Sequence record: OY720014
Source: Escherichia phage vB_Eco_QOTSP
Direction: 5' to 3' (one strand)
Length of the DNA stretch: 64,000 nucleotides
Shown: positions 19,176-48,815 of the stretch, piece after piece
Layout of the letters: every line of letters begins with the position of its first letter
Numbering within the stretch: the stretch's first letter is position 1
Notes under the pieces: model-generated
The model's input: the letters and a program-made list of their open reading frames with translations, nothing else
What the model was told of the DNA's origin: nothing
Databases searched by the model: none
Translations under genes and position numbers: made by a program

Positions 19176-19248
19176 TGGGAATTAGCCAAGTTGGTAAGGC
19201 ACTGGATTTTGATTCCAGGATGCAAAGGTTCGAGTCCTTTATTCCCAG
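19176..19248 (+). tRNA. tRNA-Gln (anticodon UUG)
   Basis: Cloverleaf: acceptor tgggaat/attccca, anticodon loop ttTTGat, T-loop TTCGAGT; CCA not encoded. Confidence 0.85.
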
Positions 19249-19249
19249 C

Positions 19250-19336
19250 GCGAGAATGGTCAAATTGGTAAAGGCACAGCACTTAAAATGCTGCGGAATG
19301 ATTTCCTTGTGGGTTCGAGTCCCACTTCTCGCACCA
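19250..19336 (+). tRNA. tRNA-Leu (anticodon UAA), long variable arm
   Basis: Acceptor gcgagaa/ttctcgc, anticodon loop ctTAAaa, long variable arm, encoded CCA. Confidence 0.85.
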
Positions 19337-19341
19337 AATTT

Positions 19342-19415
<74 letters not shown>

Positions 19416-19461
19416 ATTTATGACTCGTCGTGAGACGCTCAGTTCTTTATTAGGGACTGAT

Positions 19462-20070
19462 ATGCATTTTTATCTTTATAAAATAACAAATAAAATTAAT
19501 AATAAAATTTATATTGGTGTGCATTCTACCGAAAATTTAGATGATGGATATATGGGTTCTGGTAAATTATTAAAAAGAGCCCAAGATAAATATGGTATAG
19601 AAAATTTTTCTAAAGAAATATTAGAGTATTTTGACGATAAAGAATCTATGCTTGAAGCCGAGAAAAATATTGTCACAGAAGAGTTTTTAAATAGACCAGA
19701 TGTGTATAATTTAAAACTTGGAGGTGAAGGTGGATGGGATCATATAAATAATTATCCTATGACAGATCAGCAACGCGAATTAATTTCATTGGGTGTTAAA
19801 AAGGCGCATTCTAACGGAAAATTAAAAGGATGGTCTTCAAATGGATTAATGAAGAATGGCTTTGCTGGTAAAACTCATTCTCAAGAAGCTAAACGTAAAA
19901 TAGCAAAAGCAAACGAAGCAAAAGTTTCTGCGGATGAAAGAAAAAGAAGAATAGAAATTTCTAAATTATATGATTTTTCTAAACGTGGCGAATTGTCTAA
20001 ATATGCTAAGCATATTGGCGTAAGTCATACTCAAGCAAAAAGAATTCTAAATCAAATTAACAATATATAA
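19462..20070 (+). CDS. GIY-YIG homing endonuclease (SegB-like), inside the tRNA cluster
   Basis: ORF track 19420..20070; N-terminal YLYKITNKINNKIYIGVH ... GYMGSG is the GIY-YIG motif; likely start at M15 (19462). Confidence 0.8.
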   Translation: MHFYLYKITNKINNKIYIGVHSTENLDDGYMGSGKLLKRAQDKYGIENFSKEILEYFDDKESMLEAEKNIVTEEFLNRPDVYNLKLGGEGGWDHINNYPMTDQQRELISLGVKKAHSNGKLKGWSSNGLMKNGFAGKTHSQEAKRKIAKANEAKVSADERKRRIEISKLYDFSKRGELSKYAKHIGVSHTQAKRILNQINNI

Positions 20071-20076
20071 ATATTT

Positions 20077-20166
20077 GGAGGCGTGGCAGAGTGGTTTAAT
20101 GCACCGGTCTTGAAAACCGGCAGTCGCTCCGGCGACTCATAGGTTCAAATCCTATCGCCTCCGCCA
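20077..20166 (+). tRNA. tRNA-Ser (anticodon UGA), long variable arm
   Basis: Acceptor ggaggcg/cgcctcc, anticodon loop ctTGAaa, T-loop TTCAAAT, encoded CCA. Confidence 0.85.
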
Positions 20167-20172
20167 GTTTTT

Positions 20173-20248
20173 GCTGATTTAGCTCAGTAGGTAGAGCACC
20201 TCACTTGTAATGAGGACGTCGGCGGTTCGATTCCGTCAATCAGCACCA
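20173..20248 (+). tRNA. tRNA-Thr (anticodon UGU)
   Basis: Acceptor gctgatt/aatcagc, anticodon loop ctTGTaa, T-loop TTCGATT, encoded CCA. Confidence 0.85.
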
Positions 20249-20249
20249 A

Positions 20250-20324
20250 GGCCCTGTAGCTGGAAGGTTCAAGCAAGCGACTCATAATCGCCAGATGGTG
20301 GTTCAATTCCACCCAGGGCCACCA
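20250..20324 (+). tRNA. tRNA with anticodon CAU (Ile via lysidine by analogy with T4, or Met)
   Basis: Acceptor ggccctg/cagggcc, anticodon loop ctCATaa, T-loop TTCAATT, encoded CCA. Confidence 0.75.
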
Positions 20325-20333
20325 AATTAATTT

Positions 20334-20420
20334 GGGGAGTTATCCCGTAGAGGTAGCGGTGTGGACTGTAAATTCATTGTCATTGCGACTCGGGTGGTTC
20401 GACTCCACCACTCCCCACCA
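20334..20420 (+). tRNA. tRNA-Tyr (anticodon GUA), long variable arm
   Basis: Acceptor ggggagt/actcccc, anticodon loop ctGTAaa, variable arm gtc-attgc-gac, T-arm ggtgg-TTCGACT-ccacc; D-arm region atypical. Confidence 0.65.
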
Positions 20421-20424
20421 ATTT

Positions 20425-20499
20425 GGATGTGTAGCTCAATGGCAGAGCGATCGCCTGTTAAGCGATTGGTTATAGGTTCGAATCCTATCACGTCCGCCA
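20425..20499 (+). tRNA. tRNA-Asn (anticodon GUU)
   Basis: Acceptor ggatgtg/cacgtcc, anticodon loop ctGTTaa, T-loop TTCGAAT, encoded CCA. Confidence 0.8.
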
Positions 20500-20613
20500 A
20501 ATTTGTGACAACTGTCACATTAATATCTACTTGACGCGATTATAGGGGTTGAACTGATCACTCTTCTCTTAATTTCGTGTGAAGACATCTTGATTGTTGG
20601 AGTAGGTATTAAT

Positions 20614-20689
20614 GTGGCCGTAGTTCAGTTGGTAGAACTCGAGATTGTGATTCTCGTAGTCATGGGTTCGACTCCCATCGGTCACCCCA
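20614..20689 (+). tRNA. tRNA-His (anticodon GUG)
   Basis: Acceptor gtggccg/cggtcac, anticodon loop ttGTGat, T-loop TTCGACT, encoded CCA. Confidence 0.8.
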
Positions 20690-20693
20690 ATTA

Positions 20694-20769
20694 CGGGGCA
20701 TAGCTCAGAAGGAAGAGCAAGGACCTTCTAAGTCCTAGGTCGTAGGTTCGATCCCTACTGCCTCGACCA
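20694..20769 (+). tRNA. tRNA-Arg (anticodon UCU)
   Basis: Acceptor cggggca/tgcctcg, anticodon loop ctTCTaa, T-loop TTCGATC, encoded CCA. Confidence 0.8.
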
Positions 20770-26430: not shown

Positions 26431-26847
26431 ATGACTCGTATTAATTTGACTTTAGTATCTGAACTTGCTGATCAACATTTAATCGCAGAATACCGTGAAT
26501 TGCCGCGTGTTTTTGGTATAGTTCGTAAGCATGTGGCAAACGGTAAGCGCGTTAAAGATTTTAAAATATCTTCCGAGTTTATTTTAGGTTCTGGTCATGT
26601 TACGTTCTTTTACGATAAGTTAGAATTTTTGCGAAAGCGTCAATCGGACATTATAACGGAATGCTTAAAACGCGGGTTCAGTATAAAAGATACTGAAGTT
26701 CCTGACATCAGCGATATTCCAGTAGAATGGAAAAATGATTATAATCCATGCAAATCAGCTATTAAATTGAGTCAACAACGACTTGATGAAAAAATTTTAA
26801 TGAAACCACATTGGTATAAGTATTACGGTAAAAATATTTACATTTAA
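26431..26847 (+). CDS. denV: endonuclease V (pyrimidine-dimer DNA glycosylase)
   Basis: 138-aa [20 protein letters not shown]...[10 protein letters not shown]...WYKYYGK recognised as T4 endonuclease V. Confidence 0.95.
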
Positions 26848-26856
26848 AGGAAACAT

Positions 26857-27330
26857 ATGAAAACATATCAAGAATTTATCGCTGAAGCAGCTATTAATTC
26901 TCAAATTATTGCTGAATCTTTTACTGATCTTTTGAAATTTAAAAAAGGTCAAAAAATCACTGCTGTATTGGATGATGGTACAGAAGTTGAGATGGATGTA
27001 CAGGGATATAATTATGCAGTAGATGGAAAACTGTATAATAAATCTCATGCTAAATTTGATTCATTTGACGACTTTGTTAATACAGTTGAAGATGAAAAAA
27101 CTCGTAGATCCATTGCAACTGGTGATGCTAAGGTTCTTATGGCACATGGTCATGAACGCATTCGCGCTAAACAGAATAAAATGGGTGAAGATAATTTCGC
27201 ATTAGTTGGTTATCAATCTGGTAAACAAACTTATGGCTATCAACGTACTGCTACCATGTATAATAAAAATGGTAAAATTGCCTTTGTGAATAGTAAAGGT
27301 TCTATTCAGTACGTTAAATCGTTCAAATAA
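26857..27330 (+). CDS. internal protein (capsid targeting sequence MKTYQEFIAEA)
   Basis: 157-aa ORF with the canonical internal-protein N-terminal targeting signal; next to denV as T4 ipII/ipIII. Confidence 0.7.
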   Translation: MKTYQEFIAEAAINSQIIAESFTDLLKFKKGQKITAVLDDGTEVEMDVQGYNYAVDGKLYNKSHAKFDSFDDFVNTVEDEKTRRSIATGDAKVLMAHGHERIRAKQNKMGEDNFALVGYQSGKQTYGYQRTATMYNKNGKIAFVNSKGSIQYVKSFK

Positions 27331-27471
27331 TATGGGAACAACCTGGACCTCATGATTCTATGAGGGATTCCCGCCAACCTGTAATAAGGTCGAGCCTGAG
27401 TGCGGTAATGGGTAAATACAGAAATGGACAATTCATGCGCCACGGAATGGCCCAAATTTAGAGAGAATAAA

Positions 27472-28011: not shown

Positions 28012-28337
28012 TGACAGACACACAGCTTTTCGAATATCTCTATTTTTCGCCAAAAACTATTAAAAATAAATTGGTAAATCATTTTGAAATTTTGGCAAAT
28101 AACAACATTTTAAGCGAATTTTATCCCAAGCAATACAAATTACAAAAAGGCGTATTCAAAGGATGCAGAGTTTTGTGCACTGCTCCTAACGCGCAGTTAA
28201 TGAATAAAATTCCATATTTTACCATGGAATTTATTGATGGACCTTTTAAAGGACTAATCACCCAAAGTTTAATGGCATATGATTCTGAGCCATTTTTAAT
28301 TAAAGAACAATCTTGGATAAATTTATTTTCTAATTGA
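28011..28337 (+). CDS. hypothetical protein
   Basis: ORF track 27957..28337 trimmed to ATG 28011 (TAATG overlap); 108 aa. Confidence 0.5.
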
Positions 28338-28344
28338 GGTTTAT

Positions 28345-28707
28345 ATGAAAGCATATCAAATTCTTGAAGGCACACATAAAGGTACTATTTATTTTGAAGA
28401 TGGTATTCAAGCACGAATTATTGTCTCTAAAACCTTTAAAGAGGACTCTTTTGTAGACCCGGAAATTTTCTACGGTTTGCATGCCCGTGAAATTGAAATT
28501 GAAACACAACCTACAGTTAAAATTGAAGGTGGTCAACACCTGAACGTTAACGTTCTGCGTCGCGAAACTCTGGAAGATGCAGTTAAGCATCCGGAAAAAT
28601 ATCCGCAGCTGACCATCCGTGTATCCGGTTATGCAGTTCGCTTTAACTCTCTGACTCCGGAACAGCAGCGCGACGTTATCGCTCGTACCTTTACTGAGAG
28701 TTTGTAA
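28345..28707 (+). CDS. autonomous glycyl-radical cofactor (GrcA/YfiD)-like protein with phage-type N-terminus
   Basis: 120 aa; C-terminal ~60 aa ([60 protein letters not shown]) near-identical to E. coli GrcA incl. RVSGY glycyl-radical motif. Confidence 0.8.
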
Positions 28708-28928
28708 TGGCAAAGATAATTATTGAAGGTTCTAAAGATGTGCTAAATGCTTTCGCCGAGTGGTTTAGTAATTCAGGCGAACAGCAATTTAACGAAGCCT
28801 GGAATATGGGTGATATTGATGGAATTTATCCTACGACAGAAATTTCTGTTCAAGGATATGGCATTCATGAACCTATTCGTTTAGTTGAATATGATTTATG
28901 TACTGGTGAGGAAGTCAAATATGATTGA
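28707..28928 (+). CDS. hypothetical protein
   Basis: 73-aa ORF, ATGA overlap with upstream gene. Confidence 0.5.
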   Translation: MAKIIIEGSKDVLNAFAEWFSNSGEQQFNEAWNMGDIDGIYPTTEISVQGYGIHEPIRLVEYDLCTGEEVKYD

Positions 28929-46060: not shown

Positions 46061-46534
46061 ATGTTATTGACTGGCAAATTATATAAAGAAGAAAAACAAA
46101 AATTTTATGATGCACAAAACGGTAAATGCTTAATTTGCCAACGAGAACTAAATCCTGATGTTCAAGCTAATCACCTCGATCATGACCATGAATTAAATGG
46201 ACCAAAAGCAGGAAAGGTACGTGGATTGCTTTGTAATCTCTGCAATGCTGCAGAAGGTCAAATGAAACATAAATTTAATCGCTCTGGTTTAAAGGGACAA
46301 GGCGTTGATTATCTTGAATGGTTAGAAAATTTACTTACTTATTTAAAATCCGATTACACCCAAAATAATATTCACCCTAACTTTGTTGGAGATAAATCAA
46401 AGGAATTTTCTCGTTTAGGAAAAGAGGAAATGATGGCCGAGATGCTTCAAAGAGGATTTGAATATAATGAATCTGACACCAAAACACAGTTAATAGCTTC
46501 ATTTAAGAAGCAGCTTAGAAAGAGTTTAAAATGA
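46061..46534 (+). CDS. 49: endonuclease VII (Holliday junction resolvase) gp49
   Basis: 157 aa; CxxC ... HLDHDHELNG ... CNLCN motifs; T4 gp49 size. Confidence 0.92.
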   Translation: MLLTGKLYKEEKQKFYDAQNGKCLICQRELNPDVQANHLDHDHELNGPKAGKVRGLLCNLCNAAEGQMKHKFNRSGLKGQGVDYLEWLENLLTYLKSDYTQNNIHPNFVGDKSKEFSRLGKEEMMAEMLQRGFEYNESDTKTQLIASFKKQLRKSLK

Positions 46535-48348
46535 CAATTGAAAAAGAAATTGAAGGATTGATTCATAAAACTAATAAAGACCTTTTAAACGAGAATGCTA
46601 ATAAAGATTCTCGTGTTTTTCCAACTCAACGGGACCTTATGGCTGGTATTGTGTCTAAACACATTGCCAAAAATATGGTCCCGTCTTTTATTATGAAAGC
46701 GCATGAAAGCGGAATTATCCATTTCCATGATATTGATTATTCCCCTGCTCTTCCATTTACTAATTGCTGTTTAGTAGATTTAAAAGGAATGCTTGAGAAC
46801 GGATTTAAGCTTGGTAATGCGCAGATTGAAACTCCTAAATCAATCGGTGTTGCTACTGCAATTATGGCACAAATTACTGCGCAAGTTGCTTCCCATCAAT
46901 ACGGCGGAACGACTTTTGCTAATGTAGATAAAGTACTTTCTCCTTATGTTAAACGCACCTATGCAAAACATATTGAGGATGCAGAAAAATGGCAAATCGC
47001 TGATGCGTTGAATTATGCTCAATCTAAAACAGAAAAAGACGTATACGATGCATTCCAAGCTTATGAATATGAAGTAAATACTCTCTTTAGTTCAAACGGG
47101 CAAACACCTTTTGTAACAATTACATTTGGTACGGGAACTGACTGGACTGAACGAATGATTCAGAAAGCAATTCTGAAAAATCGTATTAAAGGTCTCGGTC
47201 GTGATGGGATAACTCCTATTTTTCCTAAGCTTGTTATGTTCGTCGAAGAAGGCGTTAATCTTTACAAAGACGATCCGAGCTATGATATTAAGCTGCTTGC
47301 TCTAGAGTGTGCAAGCAAAAGGATGTATCCTGATATTATTTCAGCTAAGAACAATAAAGCTATTACTGGTTCATCTGTTCCTGTTTCTCCAATGGGTTGC
47401 CGTAGTTTCTTGAGCGTATGGAAAGATTCGACTGGTAATGAAATTCTTGATGGACGTAATAATCTTGGTGTTGTAACACTGAATCTTCCTCGTATTGCAT
47501 TAGATTCTTATATTGGAACACAGTTCAATGAACAGAAATTTGTTGAATTGTTCAATGAACGAATGGATTTGTGTTTTGAAGCTTTGATGTGTAGAATTAG
47601 TTCCTTAAAAGGAGTTAAAGCGACTGTTGCTCCTATTCTTTACCAAGAAGGTGCATTTGGGGTTCGTCTTAAACCTGATGACGACATAATTGAGTTATTT
47701 AAAAACGGTAGAAGTTCAGTGTCTTTAGGATACATTGGTATTCACGAATTGAATATTCTTGTCGGTCGTGATATTGGACAAGAAATTTTAACTAAAATGA
47801 ATGCCCATCTTAAACAGTGGACTGAAAGAACCGGATTTGCTTTTAGTTTATATTCGACTCCTGCTGAAAACCTTTGTTATCGCTTCTGTAAACTTGATAC
47901 AGAAAAATATGGAAGTGTAAAAGATGTTACCGATAAAGGCTGGTACACTAACAGTTTCCATGTTTCAGTAGAAGAAAATATTACTCCGTTTGAAAAGATT
48001 TCTCGTGAAGCGCCATATCATTTCATTGCGACAGGTGGTCACATTTCTTATGTTGAACTTCCTGATATGAAAAATAACCTAAAAGGTCTTGAGGCTGTAT
48101 GGGATTATGCTGCACAACATTTAGATTATTTTGGTGTTAACATGCCGGTAGATAAATGTTTTACATGCGGAAGTACCCATGAAATGACTCCTACTGAAAA
48201 CGGATTTGTTTGTTCTATTTGTGGAGAAACTGATCCTAAAAAGATGAACACAATAAGAAGAACATGTGGTTATTTGGGAAATCCGAACGAACGCGGATTT
48301 AATCTCGGTAAAAATAAAGAAATCATGCATAGGGTTAAACACCAATGA
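46531..48348 (+). CDS. nrdD: anaerobic ribonucleoside-triphosphate reductase NrdD (uninterrupted)
   Basis: 605-aa continuous ORF; C-terminal glycyl-radical motif RRTCGYLG and zinc-ribbon CxxC pairs. Confidence 0.95.
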   Translation: MTIEKEIEGLIHKTNKDLLNENANKDSRVFPTQRDLMAGIVSKHIAKNMVPSFIMKAHESGIIHFHDIDYSPALPFTNCCLVDLKGMLENGFKLGNAQIETPKSIGVATAIMAQITAQVASHQYGGTTFANVDKVLSPYVKRTYAKHIEDAEKWQIADALNYAQSKTEKDVYDAFQAYEYEVNTLFSSNGQTPFVTITFGTGTDWTERMIQKAILKNRIKGLGRDGITPIFPKLVMFVEEGVNLYKDDPSYDIKLLALECASKRMYPDIISAKNNKAITGSSVPVSPMGCRSFLSVWKDSTGNEILDGRNNLGVVTLNLPRIALDSYIGTQFNEQKFVELFNERMDLCFEALMCRISSLKGVKATVAPILYQEGAFGVRLKPDDDIIELFKNGRSSVSLGYIGIHELNILVGRDIGQEILTKMNAHLKQWTERTGFAFSLYSTPAENLCYRFCKLDTEKYGSVKDVTDKGWYTNSFHVSVEENITPFEKISREAPYHFIATGGHISYVELPDMKNNLKGLEAVWDYAAQHLDYFGVNMPVDKCFTCGSTHEMTPTENGFVCSICGETDPKKMNTIRRTCGYLGNPNERGFNLGKNKEIMHRVKHQ

Positions 48349-48815
48349 ATTATGATAGATTTTATCCTTGCGATTTTGTGAATGGCCCTGGTTGCAGGGT
48401 CGTTCTTTTCGTTACAGGTTGTTTGCATAAATGCGAAGGGTGTTATAATAAATCAACATGGAATGCTAGAAATGGTATTCCATTCACTGGTGAAACACTA
48501 GAACAATTAATTGAATGTTTGAATAATGATTATATAGAAGGATTAACTATAACTGGAGGAGACCCTCTCTATCCTGATAATCGAGATGTTATTCATTGCA
48601 TTGTTCAAACAGTAAAAAATCTTTATCCCAATAAAAGCATTTGGTTGTGGACAGGATATAAATTTGAAGATATTAAACAACTAGAAATGCTTAAATATGT
48701 TGATGTTATTATTGATGGGAAGTATGATAAAAATCTTCCGACCAAAAAGCTGTGGAGAGGATCAGATAATCAGCGGCTTTGGTCAAATACCGATGGGGTG
48801 TGGAAACATGATTAA
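48345..48815 (+). CDS. nrdG: anaerobic RNR activating protein NrdG (radical SAM)
   Basis: 156 aa; CLHKCEGC radical-SAM cysteine motif. Confidence 0.92.
   Translation: MNYDRFYPCDFVNGPGCRVVLFVTGCLHKCEGCYNKSTWNARNGIPFTGETLEQLIECLNNDYIEGLTITGGDPLYPDNRDVIHCIVQTVKNLYPNKSIWLWTGYKFEDIKQLEMLKYVDVIIDGKYDKNLPTKKLWRGSDNQRLWSNTDGVWKHD

Follow-up and report, generated by a model that had tools for sequence, protein, structure and literature searches.

The vs.6 gene and its surroundings

The stretch of DNA analysed here (64,000 nucleotides of Escherichia phage vB_Eco_QOTSP, record OY720014; hereafter the window) belongs to a T4-like phage of the genus Tequatrovirus. At 28345..28707 on the + strand, the list of open reading frames places a coding sequence of 120 aa that is the orthologue of T4 vs.6 (protein Y06I), the phage autonomous glycyl radical cofactor. 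The gene starts with ATG and is preceded by a Shine-Dalgarno-like GAGG (28331..28334, + strand; read from the sequence), which lies 8 nt before the start codon and overlaps the TGA stop of vs.7, and its own TAA stop overlaps the ATG of vs.5 (28707). Its DNA is 99.4% identical to vs.6 of phages RB51, RB68 and wV7, and its protein is 98.3% identical to T4 Vs.6. The window and RB51 have in common the gene order e, denV, Ip4, vs.8, vs.7, vs.6, vs.5 ... regB, and this position within the denV...regB early-gene block, together with the high identity to T4, places the gene in the T4 vs.6 orthologous group. In RefSeq, these genes carry the name "autonomous glycyl radical cofactor GrcA". Since only one GrcA-like locus exists in T4, the protein called Y06I in the literature is the product of vs.6.

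A scan for promoters and terminators around vs.6 returned counts equal to the shuffled expectation. An antisense open reading frame that spans all of vs.6 (28330..28713, 127 aa, - strand) most likely just shadows the coding frame, as no evidence speaks for it. Further upstream, directly after denV, the window carries a gene for an internal head protein (26857..27330; Ip4 in RB51) with the capsid-targeting leader MKTYQEFIAEA. T4 has ipII/ipIII just upstream of denV instead, the spot being known as hypervariable. Because this internal-head-protein spot near denV differs, the identity between the window and T4 falls to 26-54% at 26845-27344.

Vs.6 as a phage member of the GrcA family

The original prediction, made from the letters of this stretch, held that the C-terminal ~60 residues of the protein are nearly identical to E. 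coli GrcA and include the RVSGY glycyl-radical motif. Database comparison bears this out. BLASTP aligns Vs.6 with E. coli K-12 GrcA at 73/100 identical residues (E 3e-52), and residues 61-120 (EGGQHLNV...TESL) are identical to GrcA 68-127 at 60/60 positions, RVSGY included; the similarity is strong rather than weak, in the protein as well as in the DNA. The motif lies at 28618..28632 (+ strand, residues 92-96), as placed by translation and by alignment to PDB entries 6OWR and 1H16, and its radical Gly95 (codon 28627-28629) is equivalent to Gly102 of GrcA and Gly734 of pyruvate formate-lyase (PFL). The Pfam Gly_radical model matches residues 60-101 of Vs.6 with 67.2 bits, against a cut-off of 22.2. 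In a search of the PDB, Vs.6 aligned to YfiD (6OWR) over its residues 22-120 (E 5e-42), and its radical domain matched PFL residues 697-759 with 94 bits and ~78% identity.

Vs.6 has the architecture of the GrcA/YfiD family (TIGR04365 / IPR011140), being a stand-alone protein of ~14 kDa in which an N-half of ~60 residues is followed by a glycyl-radical domain, and it carries both RVSGY and a C-terminal domain that mimics PFL ~697-759. This segment of PflB (697-759; PDB 1H16, 2PFL) is the part that Vs.6 mimics and replaces; unlike PflB, Vs.6 is a stand-alone 14-kDa protein without the catalytic barrel. Against the NCBIfam equivalog model TIGR04365, Vs.6 scores 154.6 bits, below the cut-off of 170 bits, whereas E. 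coli GrcA scores 234. Vs.6 falls short because its N-half is divergent, so that only residues 20-120 align. Vs.6/Y06I is thus best regarded as a phage branch within the GrcA family and not as a strict GrcA equivalog.

The nature of the N-half bears on how the gene arose. It had been proposed that a host glycyl-radical domain was fused to a phage-type N-terminus, that is, that a fragment of host grcA was joined to an unrelated phage open reading frame to give a new chimeric protein, and indeed a Pfam search with the N-half alone gives no match. However, when a profile of 13 phage N-halves was compared with one of 13 host GrcA N-halves, with the C-terminal residues excluded from both, hhalign returned a probability of 96.8% (E 3.1e-10, 59 columns, 27% identity). 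The supposedly foreign N-half is therefore itself homologous to that of GrcA, although the relationship shows at profile level only. Compared with E. coli GrcA (YfiD, 6OWR), which has the same arrangement of an N-half and a PFL-like radical domain and is identical over the C-terminal 60 residues, the phage N-half is 7 residues shorter, and the GrcA segment SFWLLD...ARC.CAK is replaced in the phage by GTIYFED...ARIIVSK. In YfiD, residues 1-60 are disordered and help to bind cleaved PFL, and residues 61-127 copy the fold of PFL 693-759 (PMC8683613). Since the N-half of YfiD mediates this binding, the phage protein may differ from it in binding or regulation.

A tract identical to E. coli grcA

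At the DNA level, vs.6 is a mosaic. Its 5' part, 28345..28522 (+ strand, residues 1-59/60), is of phage lineage, with a GC of 0.34 and a GC3 of 0.20; it is ~50% identical to E. coli grcA DNA, 90-98% identical to other Tequatrovirus and Mosigvirus copies and 73% identical to those of Jiaodavirus. There follows, at 28523..28697 (+ strand, gene positions 179-353), the host-derived conversion tract, which encodes the structured glycyl-radical domain and in which 175/175 nt are identical to E. coli K-12 grcA. The gene closes with a phage-type 3' end, 28698..28707 (+ strand), where the phage reads GAG AGT TTG TAA and the host GAA AGC CTG TAA; these last 10 nt hold three synonymous mismatches to K-12 grcA, and none of the Tequatrovirus and Mosigvirus copies examined is like E. 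coli there. The host-identical tract thus covers the structured radical domain almost exactly, and the counterpart of the phage-specific 5' part in YfiD is the disordered half (residues 1-60) that takes part in binding.

Composition changes at the same place. GC rises from 0.337 in the 5' part to 0.497 in the tract and GC3 from 0.20 to 0.44, and the 3' half of vs.6 holds all five of its CTG codons, all three CCG codons and all six CGT/CGC codons. The GC of the tract lies within the top 0.5% of 175-nt windows, the mean of the 64-kb window being 0.35, and the best GC change-point within vs.6 falls at 28527 (permutation p = 0.05). The change of codon usage and composition that had been read from the letters is therefore real, but its site is 28523 and not ~28510. 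The other high-GC spots of the window are due to a cluster of 10 tRNA genes at 19176..20769 (Gln, Leu, Gly, Ser, Thr, Met, Tyr, Asn, His, Arg). The Tyr-Asn part of this cluster (20329..20485) matched no chromosome, and ~213 E. coli plasmid records carry tRNA arrays that resemble it at 82-88% identity; these arrays hold Tyr and Thr in all cases and Asn in some.

The donor of the tract can be named with some precision. When 81 enterobacterial and Pasteurellaceae grcA genes were compared, E. coli alone shared all 175 nt without interruption; an Escherichia sp. came second with a run of 71 nt, and the exact runs of the rest were 10-44 nt long. The tract is present at 95% identity or more in each of the 5,426 complete E. 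coli genomes, in many of them at 100%, and in a megablast search against these genomes the tract is the sole chromosomal match of the whole window. Moreover, 21/21 sites that are diagnostic between E. coli and K. pneumoniae are in the E. coli state. Among phages, ~643 records, T4 included, carry the E. coli-type tract at an identity of at least 95%. The carriers that were checked taxonomically belong to Tequatrovirus or Mosigvirus (T4, RB51, JLBYU24, F2, KMB39 and typing phage 6, and further LF82-7, KAW3E185, mar005P1 and AV114), with HY126 having no genus assignment in its record. T4 itself, whose vs.6 (Wagner et al. 2001, BBRC 285:456) has the same genomic position and the same length of 120 aa, shows the same mosaic, its 3' tract being ~99% identical to E. 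coli grcA. The two proteins differ at two residues, where T4 has P against T54 and H against R73 of the window, R73 being the host state; relative to the K-12 allele, the tract of T4 has two substitutions and that of the window none.

Contamination with host reads, chimeric assembly or convergent codon selection could also be invoked for such an identity, and the unusual composition is the one observation that would fit them. We consider these explanations hardly credible. The same junction is present in all these independently sequenced phage genomes, the T4 reference among them, which speaks against an artefact. In addition, synonymous sites vary freely in other phage lineages (dS 0.6 to >2), so selection on codons cannot explain an identity of 175/175 nt. 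The recent origin of the C-terminal coding DNA from the host, as claimed in the original prediction, thus holds to the nucleotide level, provided that recent is understood on the scale of phage evolution.

An old phage gene with a host-derived patch

Full-length homologues of vs.6 are present in 1,588 phage records, drawn from every group of T4 relatives and also from T5-like phages, RaK2-like jumbo phages and vibriophages. Indeed, Nolan et al. (2006) placed vs.6 among the 11 unknown T4 open reading frames that were conserved throughout the T4-like genomes of their comparison. In most of the homologue lineages, the C-terminal protein is near-invariant but the DNA is only 70-84% identical to any host grcA sampled; therefore, only identity of the DNA marks a recent transfer. 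The RB43-, RB49-, KP15-, CC31-, T5- and RaK2-like homologues are of this kind, having the same length, the same N-terminal motifs and the near-invariant C-terminal protein and, unlike the window, no recent host patch. The lineages with non-host-like 3' DNA show saturated dS and include the E. coli phage RB43-like L098, the RB49/JSE-like L112 and T5-like phages. Judged from these alignments, the vs.6 family is old in phages, and the identity of its protein to that of the host is kept by selection.

This distribution also decides between the possible origins of the mosaic. The sharp break in composition and identity at 28523 is what a fusion of a host fragment to an unrelated reading frame would leave. 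Yet the same N-half motifs are joined to non-host 3' DNA in Karam-, Slopek- and Krischvirus-like phages as well as in RB43-like, T5-like and jumbo phages. A complete gene therefore predated the patch, and part of this resident gene was replaced rather than a fragment captured. With the homology of the N-halves also speaking against it, we regard the fusion as very improbable. Another route would be the capture of the whole grcA gene from E. coli, followed by drift of its 5' half towards phage composition, in keeping with a protein that is GrcA-like throughout. However, identity drops from 100% to ~50% within a few bases, a step that gradual drift cannot yield, and the 5' half clusters with its counterparts in phages that have a 3' half from K. 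pneumoniae or from no donor, so that we give this route even less credit than the fusion.

The replacement of part of a resident phage gene is consistent with the details of the junction. In host grcA genes, the 5' half passes into the 3' half without a break, and the tract has host composition; therefore, the direction of transfer was from host to phage. In the junction alignment, a phage-type sequence common to all phages runs up to ...AAAATT. After GAAGG, Tequatrovirus, T4 and Mosigvirus read exactly as E. coli, Jiaodavirus KP179 reads exactly as K. pneumoniae, and the RB43-like phage uses its own codons. The patch starts where the homology between phage and host starts, and it ends ~10 nt before the stop codon, where this homology ends. 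A patch of this shape is what one would expect if host grcA had undergone homologous recombination with a resident vs.6 that is ~80% identical to it in this region. T4 recombines with short homologous cytosine-containing DNA, as is known from plasmid marker-rescue work. We propose that the conserved 3' 175 bp of a resident vs.6 were overwritten by E. coli grcA through homologous recombination, leaving a gene-conversion patch.

Comparison with Mosigvirus gives a relative age for the tract. Identity between the window and Mosigvirus is ~65-71% in the flanks, ~90% in the 5' part of vs.6 and 98-99% in the tract, and dS falls from 0.27-0.31 in the 5' part to 0.02-0.18 in the tract. The lower dS makes the tract younger than the split between the 5' halves of the two genera. 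The phage tracts match different E. coli alleles exactly, that of the window being of the K-12 type and that of L088 of the type seen in SK1144, and the pair of changes 41C>T and 104C>A is common to L086, JLBYU24 and E. coli strain B4103. The overlap of phage and host SNP sites (tract positions 41 and 104; 2/5 host sites) is nevertheless at chance level among the ~58 third codon positions, and most SNPs of the phage tracts are C>T or G>A drift. Repeated conversion within the E. coli phages was considered, but it could not be separated from a single event followed by spread from phage to phage.

Two phages have unusual versions of the gene. Tequatrovirus F2 (L176, 223..585) carries a Mosigvirus-type 5' half of vs.6, with 18/178 differences from the window, and vs.6 has therefore been exchanged between the two genera. 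In Escherichia phage vB-Eco-KMB39 (L183, 151..568), a 55-nt tandem duplication lies across the phage/host junction of vs.6; it corresponds to gene positions 171-225 of the window and splits vs.6 into two annotated open reading frames. This duplication could be a recombination scar or a sequencing error.

Predicted role in anaerobic metabolism

Both the gene vs.6 and its biochemical function are already known. As related in PMC8683613 and PMC13450708, Wagner et al. (2001) found that the PFL activating enzyme installs a glycyl radical on both E. coli YfiD and T4 Y06I and that they restore the activity of PFL cleaved by oxygen at Gly734; within these accounts, the two are the only validated spare-part proteins so far. 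Because the window protein is 98.3% identical to T4 Y06I, we carry this mechanism over to it, so that its predicted function rests on the biochemistry of a protein that differs from it at 2 residues. Since T4 Y06I is already validated, the vs.6 of the window adds nothing new on function. The proposal that the protein acts as a spare glycyl-radical domain for oxygen-damaged PFL matches what PMC8683613 relates of Y06I.

The mechanism that we envisage is as follows. Host PflA would put the glycyl radical on the Gly of RVSGY in Vs.6, which would then dock into host PFL whose C-terminal radical domain had been cut off by oxygen at Gly734, and the docked Vs.6 would restore the conversion of pyruvate to acetyl-CoA and formate. 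Phage shut-off of host gene expression would mean that host GrcA is not replenished, and a spare part made by the phage would keep fermentative energy and formate flowing in a micro-oxic gut host. Formate from PFL would also serve as the reductant for the phage's own NrdD. We know of no in vivo phenotype of vs.6. We put at roughly 0.85 the probability that Vs.6 is a PFL spare part encoded by an old phage gene of the GrcA family whose 3' 175 bp were overwritten by E. coli grcA.

As had been pointed out at the start, the same phage carries NrdD and NrdG. The window holds nrdD at 46531..48348 (+ strand), coding for a class III anaerobic, formate-dependent ribonucleotide reductase (RNR) with an RRTCGYLG C-terminus, and nrdG at 48345..48815 (+ strand), coding for the NrdD activase, both according to the RB51 annotation. 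For class III RNRs of the kind found in T4 and E. coli, the reductant is formate (PMC4493059), and the NrdD of the window is a probable consumer of PFL-derived formate.

The presence of both genes had also led to the idea that Vs.6 serves the anaerobic RNR directly: it could replace the radical domain of NrdD molecules cleaved by oxygen, or NrdG could act on it. Gene order in other phages could be taken in its favour. In the jumbo-phage contigs L107, L109 and L110 (345-357 kb) and also in L130 (235 kb), a homologue of vs.6 either separates nrdD from nrdG or adjoins them (in L109, nrdD 43-1419, grcA 1495-1857 and nrdG 2187-2657), and in Aeromonas phage PX29 the homologue abuts nrdG. The RaK2-like jumbo phages have their homologue inside the nrdD-nrdG cluster, unlike the window. 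However, BLASTP between Vs.6 and the NrdD of the window gave a best E value of 3.9 with no alignment over the RRTCGY region, so that Vs.6 has no similarity to the C-terminal glycyl-radical region that marks a class III RNR. Its radical domain is identical to that of host GrcA and matches PFL 697-759, not the NrdD C-terminus; being of the PFL type, it leaves a role as NrdD replacement without support from the sequence. The published activity, as PMC8683613 relates it, is with PFL and PFL activase. The gene neighbourhood is equally well explained by a shared anaerobic regulon and by the supply of PFL formate to class III RNR. Direct service to the RNR is therefore unlikely in our estimation.

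A PFL spare part can be linked to nucleotide synthesis by a less direct path. The adjacency of grcA and nrdDG suggests a shared anaerobic module in unrelated phage lineages, and the nrdD-grcA-nrdG order of the jumbo phages indicates that formate may link the function of vs.6 to anaerobic dNTP synthesis. The simplest interpretation would be that the spare part protects the supply of formate and acetyl-CoA for anaerobic phage DNA synthesis.

A second patch in Klebsiella phages

Jiaodavirus, a sister genus with phages of Klebsiella and Raoultella (KP179, Merci, UTI-K1 and others), has the same vs.6 mosaic and the same 5' junction as the window, its GC rising from 0.35-0.38 in the 5' part to 0.54-0.56 in the 3' part, but its donor is K. 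pneumoniae and not E. coli. The Jiaodavirus tracts match K. pneumoniae grcA at 159-169/175 nt (91-97%) and E. coli grcA at 149-154/175; exact runs with the former reach 140 nt, and 13-19/21 diagnostic sites are in the K. pneumoniae state. In the phage collection, the K. pneumoniae tract occurs in 106 records at 95-99% identity and in 28 at 90-95%. By these measures, the Jiaodavirus patch reads clearly as a second, independent event with K. pneumoniae grcA as the donor. The K. pneumoniae gene was taken from L177 (CP125156.1), a 5.37-Mb record filed as a plasmid that is really chromosomal. The same holds for L178 (LR134122.1), a K. aerogenes NCTC fragment filed as a plasmid, whose grcA has a frameshift. 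K. aerogenes grcA was also considered as the donor for the K. aerogenes phage Merci; L178 being the sole record and frameshifted, the ungapped comparison was unusable.

The E. coli and Klebsiella patches form a clean natural example of homology-limited gene conversion from host to lytic phage, and they offer a handle on the frequency of such conversions. They also hint that matching the PFL/PflA system of the host matters to the phage during anaerobic infection of the gut. It is conceivable, with odds that we place a little below even, that T4-like lytic phages keep their radical domain matched to the current host by recurrent, selected conversion from host grcA. If the conversion is recurrent and selected, it would amount to a host-tracking mechanism for a phage metabolic gene and, if true, to a rare documented case of DNA flow from host to T4 by homologous recombination. 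Such tracking is not general, since no Salmonella-type tract was present in the phage collection, in which no phage exceeds 84% identity to S. enterica grcA.

In the literature that we searched, we found no earlier description of the mosaic at the DNA level, of its recurrence in Klebsiella phages or of the nrdDG gene order, an older mention being possible; host-tracking conversion thus appears to be unreported. An unaltered patch of the E. coli chromosome in the best-studied lytic phage is an evolutionary detail that is possibly worth a short note.

Other phage lineages show smaller signs of host resemblance. L103, a phage contig from an oral metagenome, has a 53-56-nt exact run with grcA of the Haemophilus parainfluenzae type (L074, L075) at an overall identity of 83%, and its metagenomic relatives L104 and L106 are without this run, which may be a third, smaller host patch. 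Finally, among lineages without a recent patch, the two residues that set E. coli GrcA (LEDAVKH) apart from Klebsiella GrcA (LLDAVEH) are of the E. coli type in L097 and L098 and of the Klebsiella type in L099 and L100. These four are RB43-like and KP15/Slopekvirus-like IMG/VR contigs with putative hosts, and their residue pattern could reflect either selection for matching the host or older, decayed patches.
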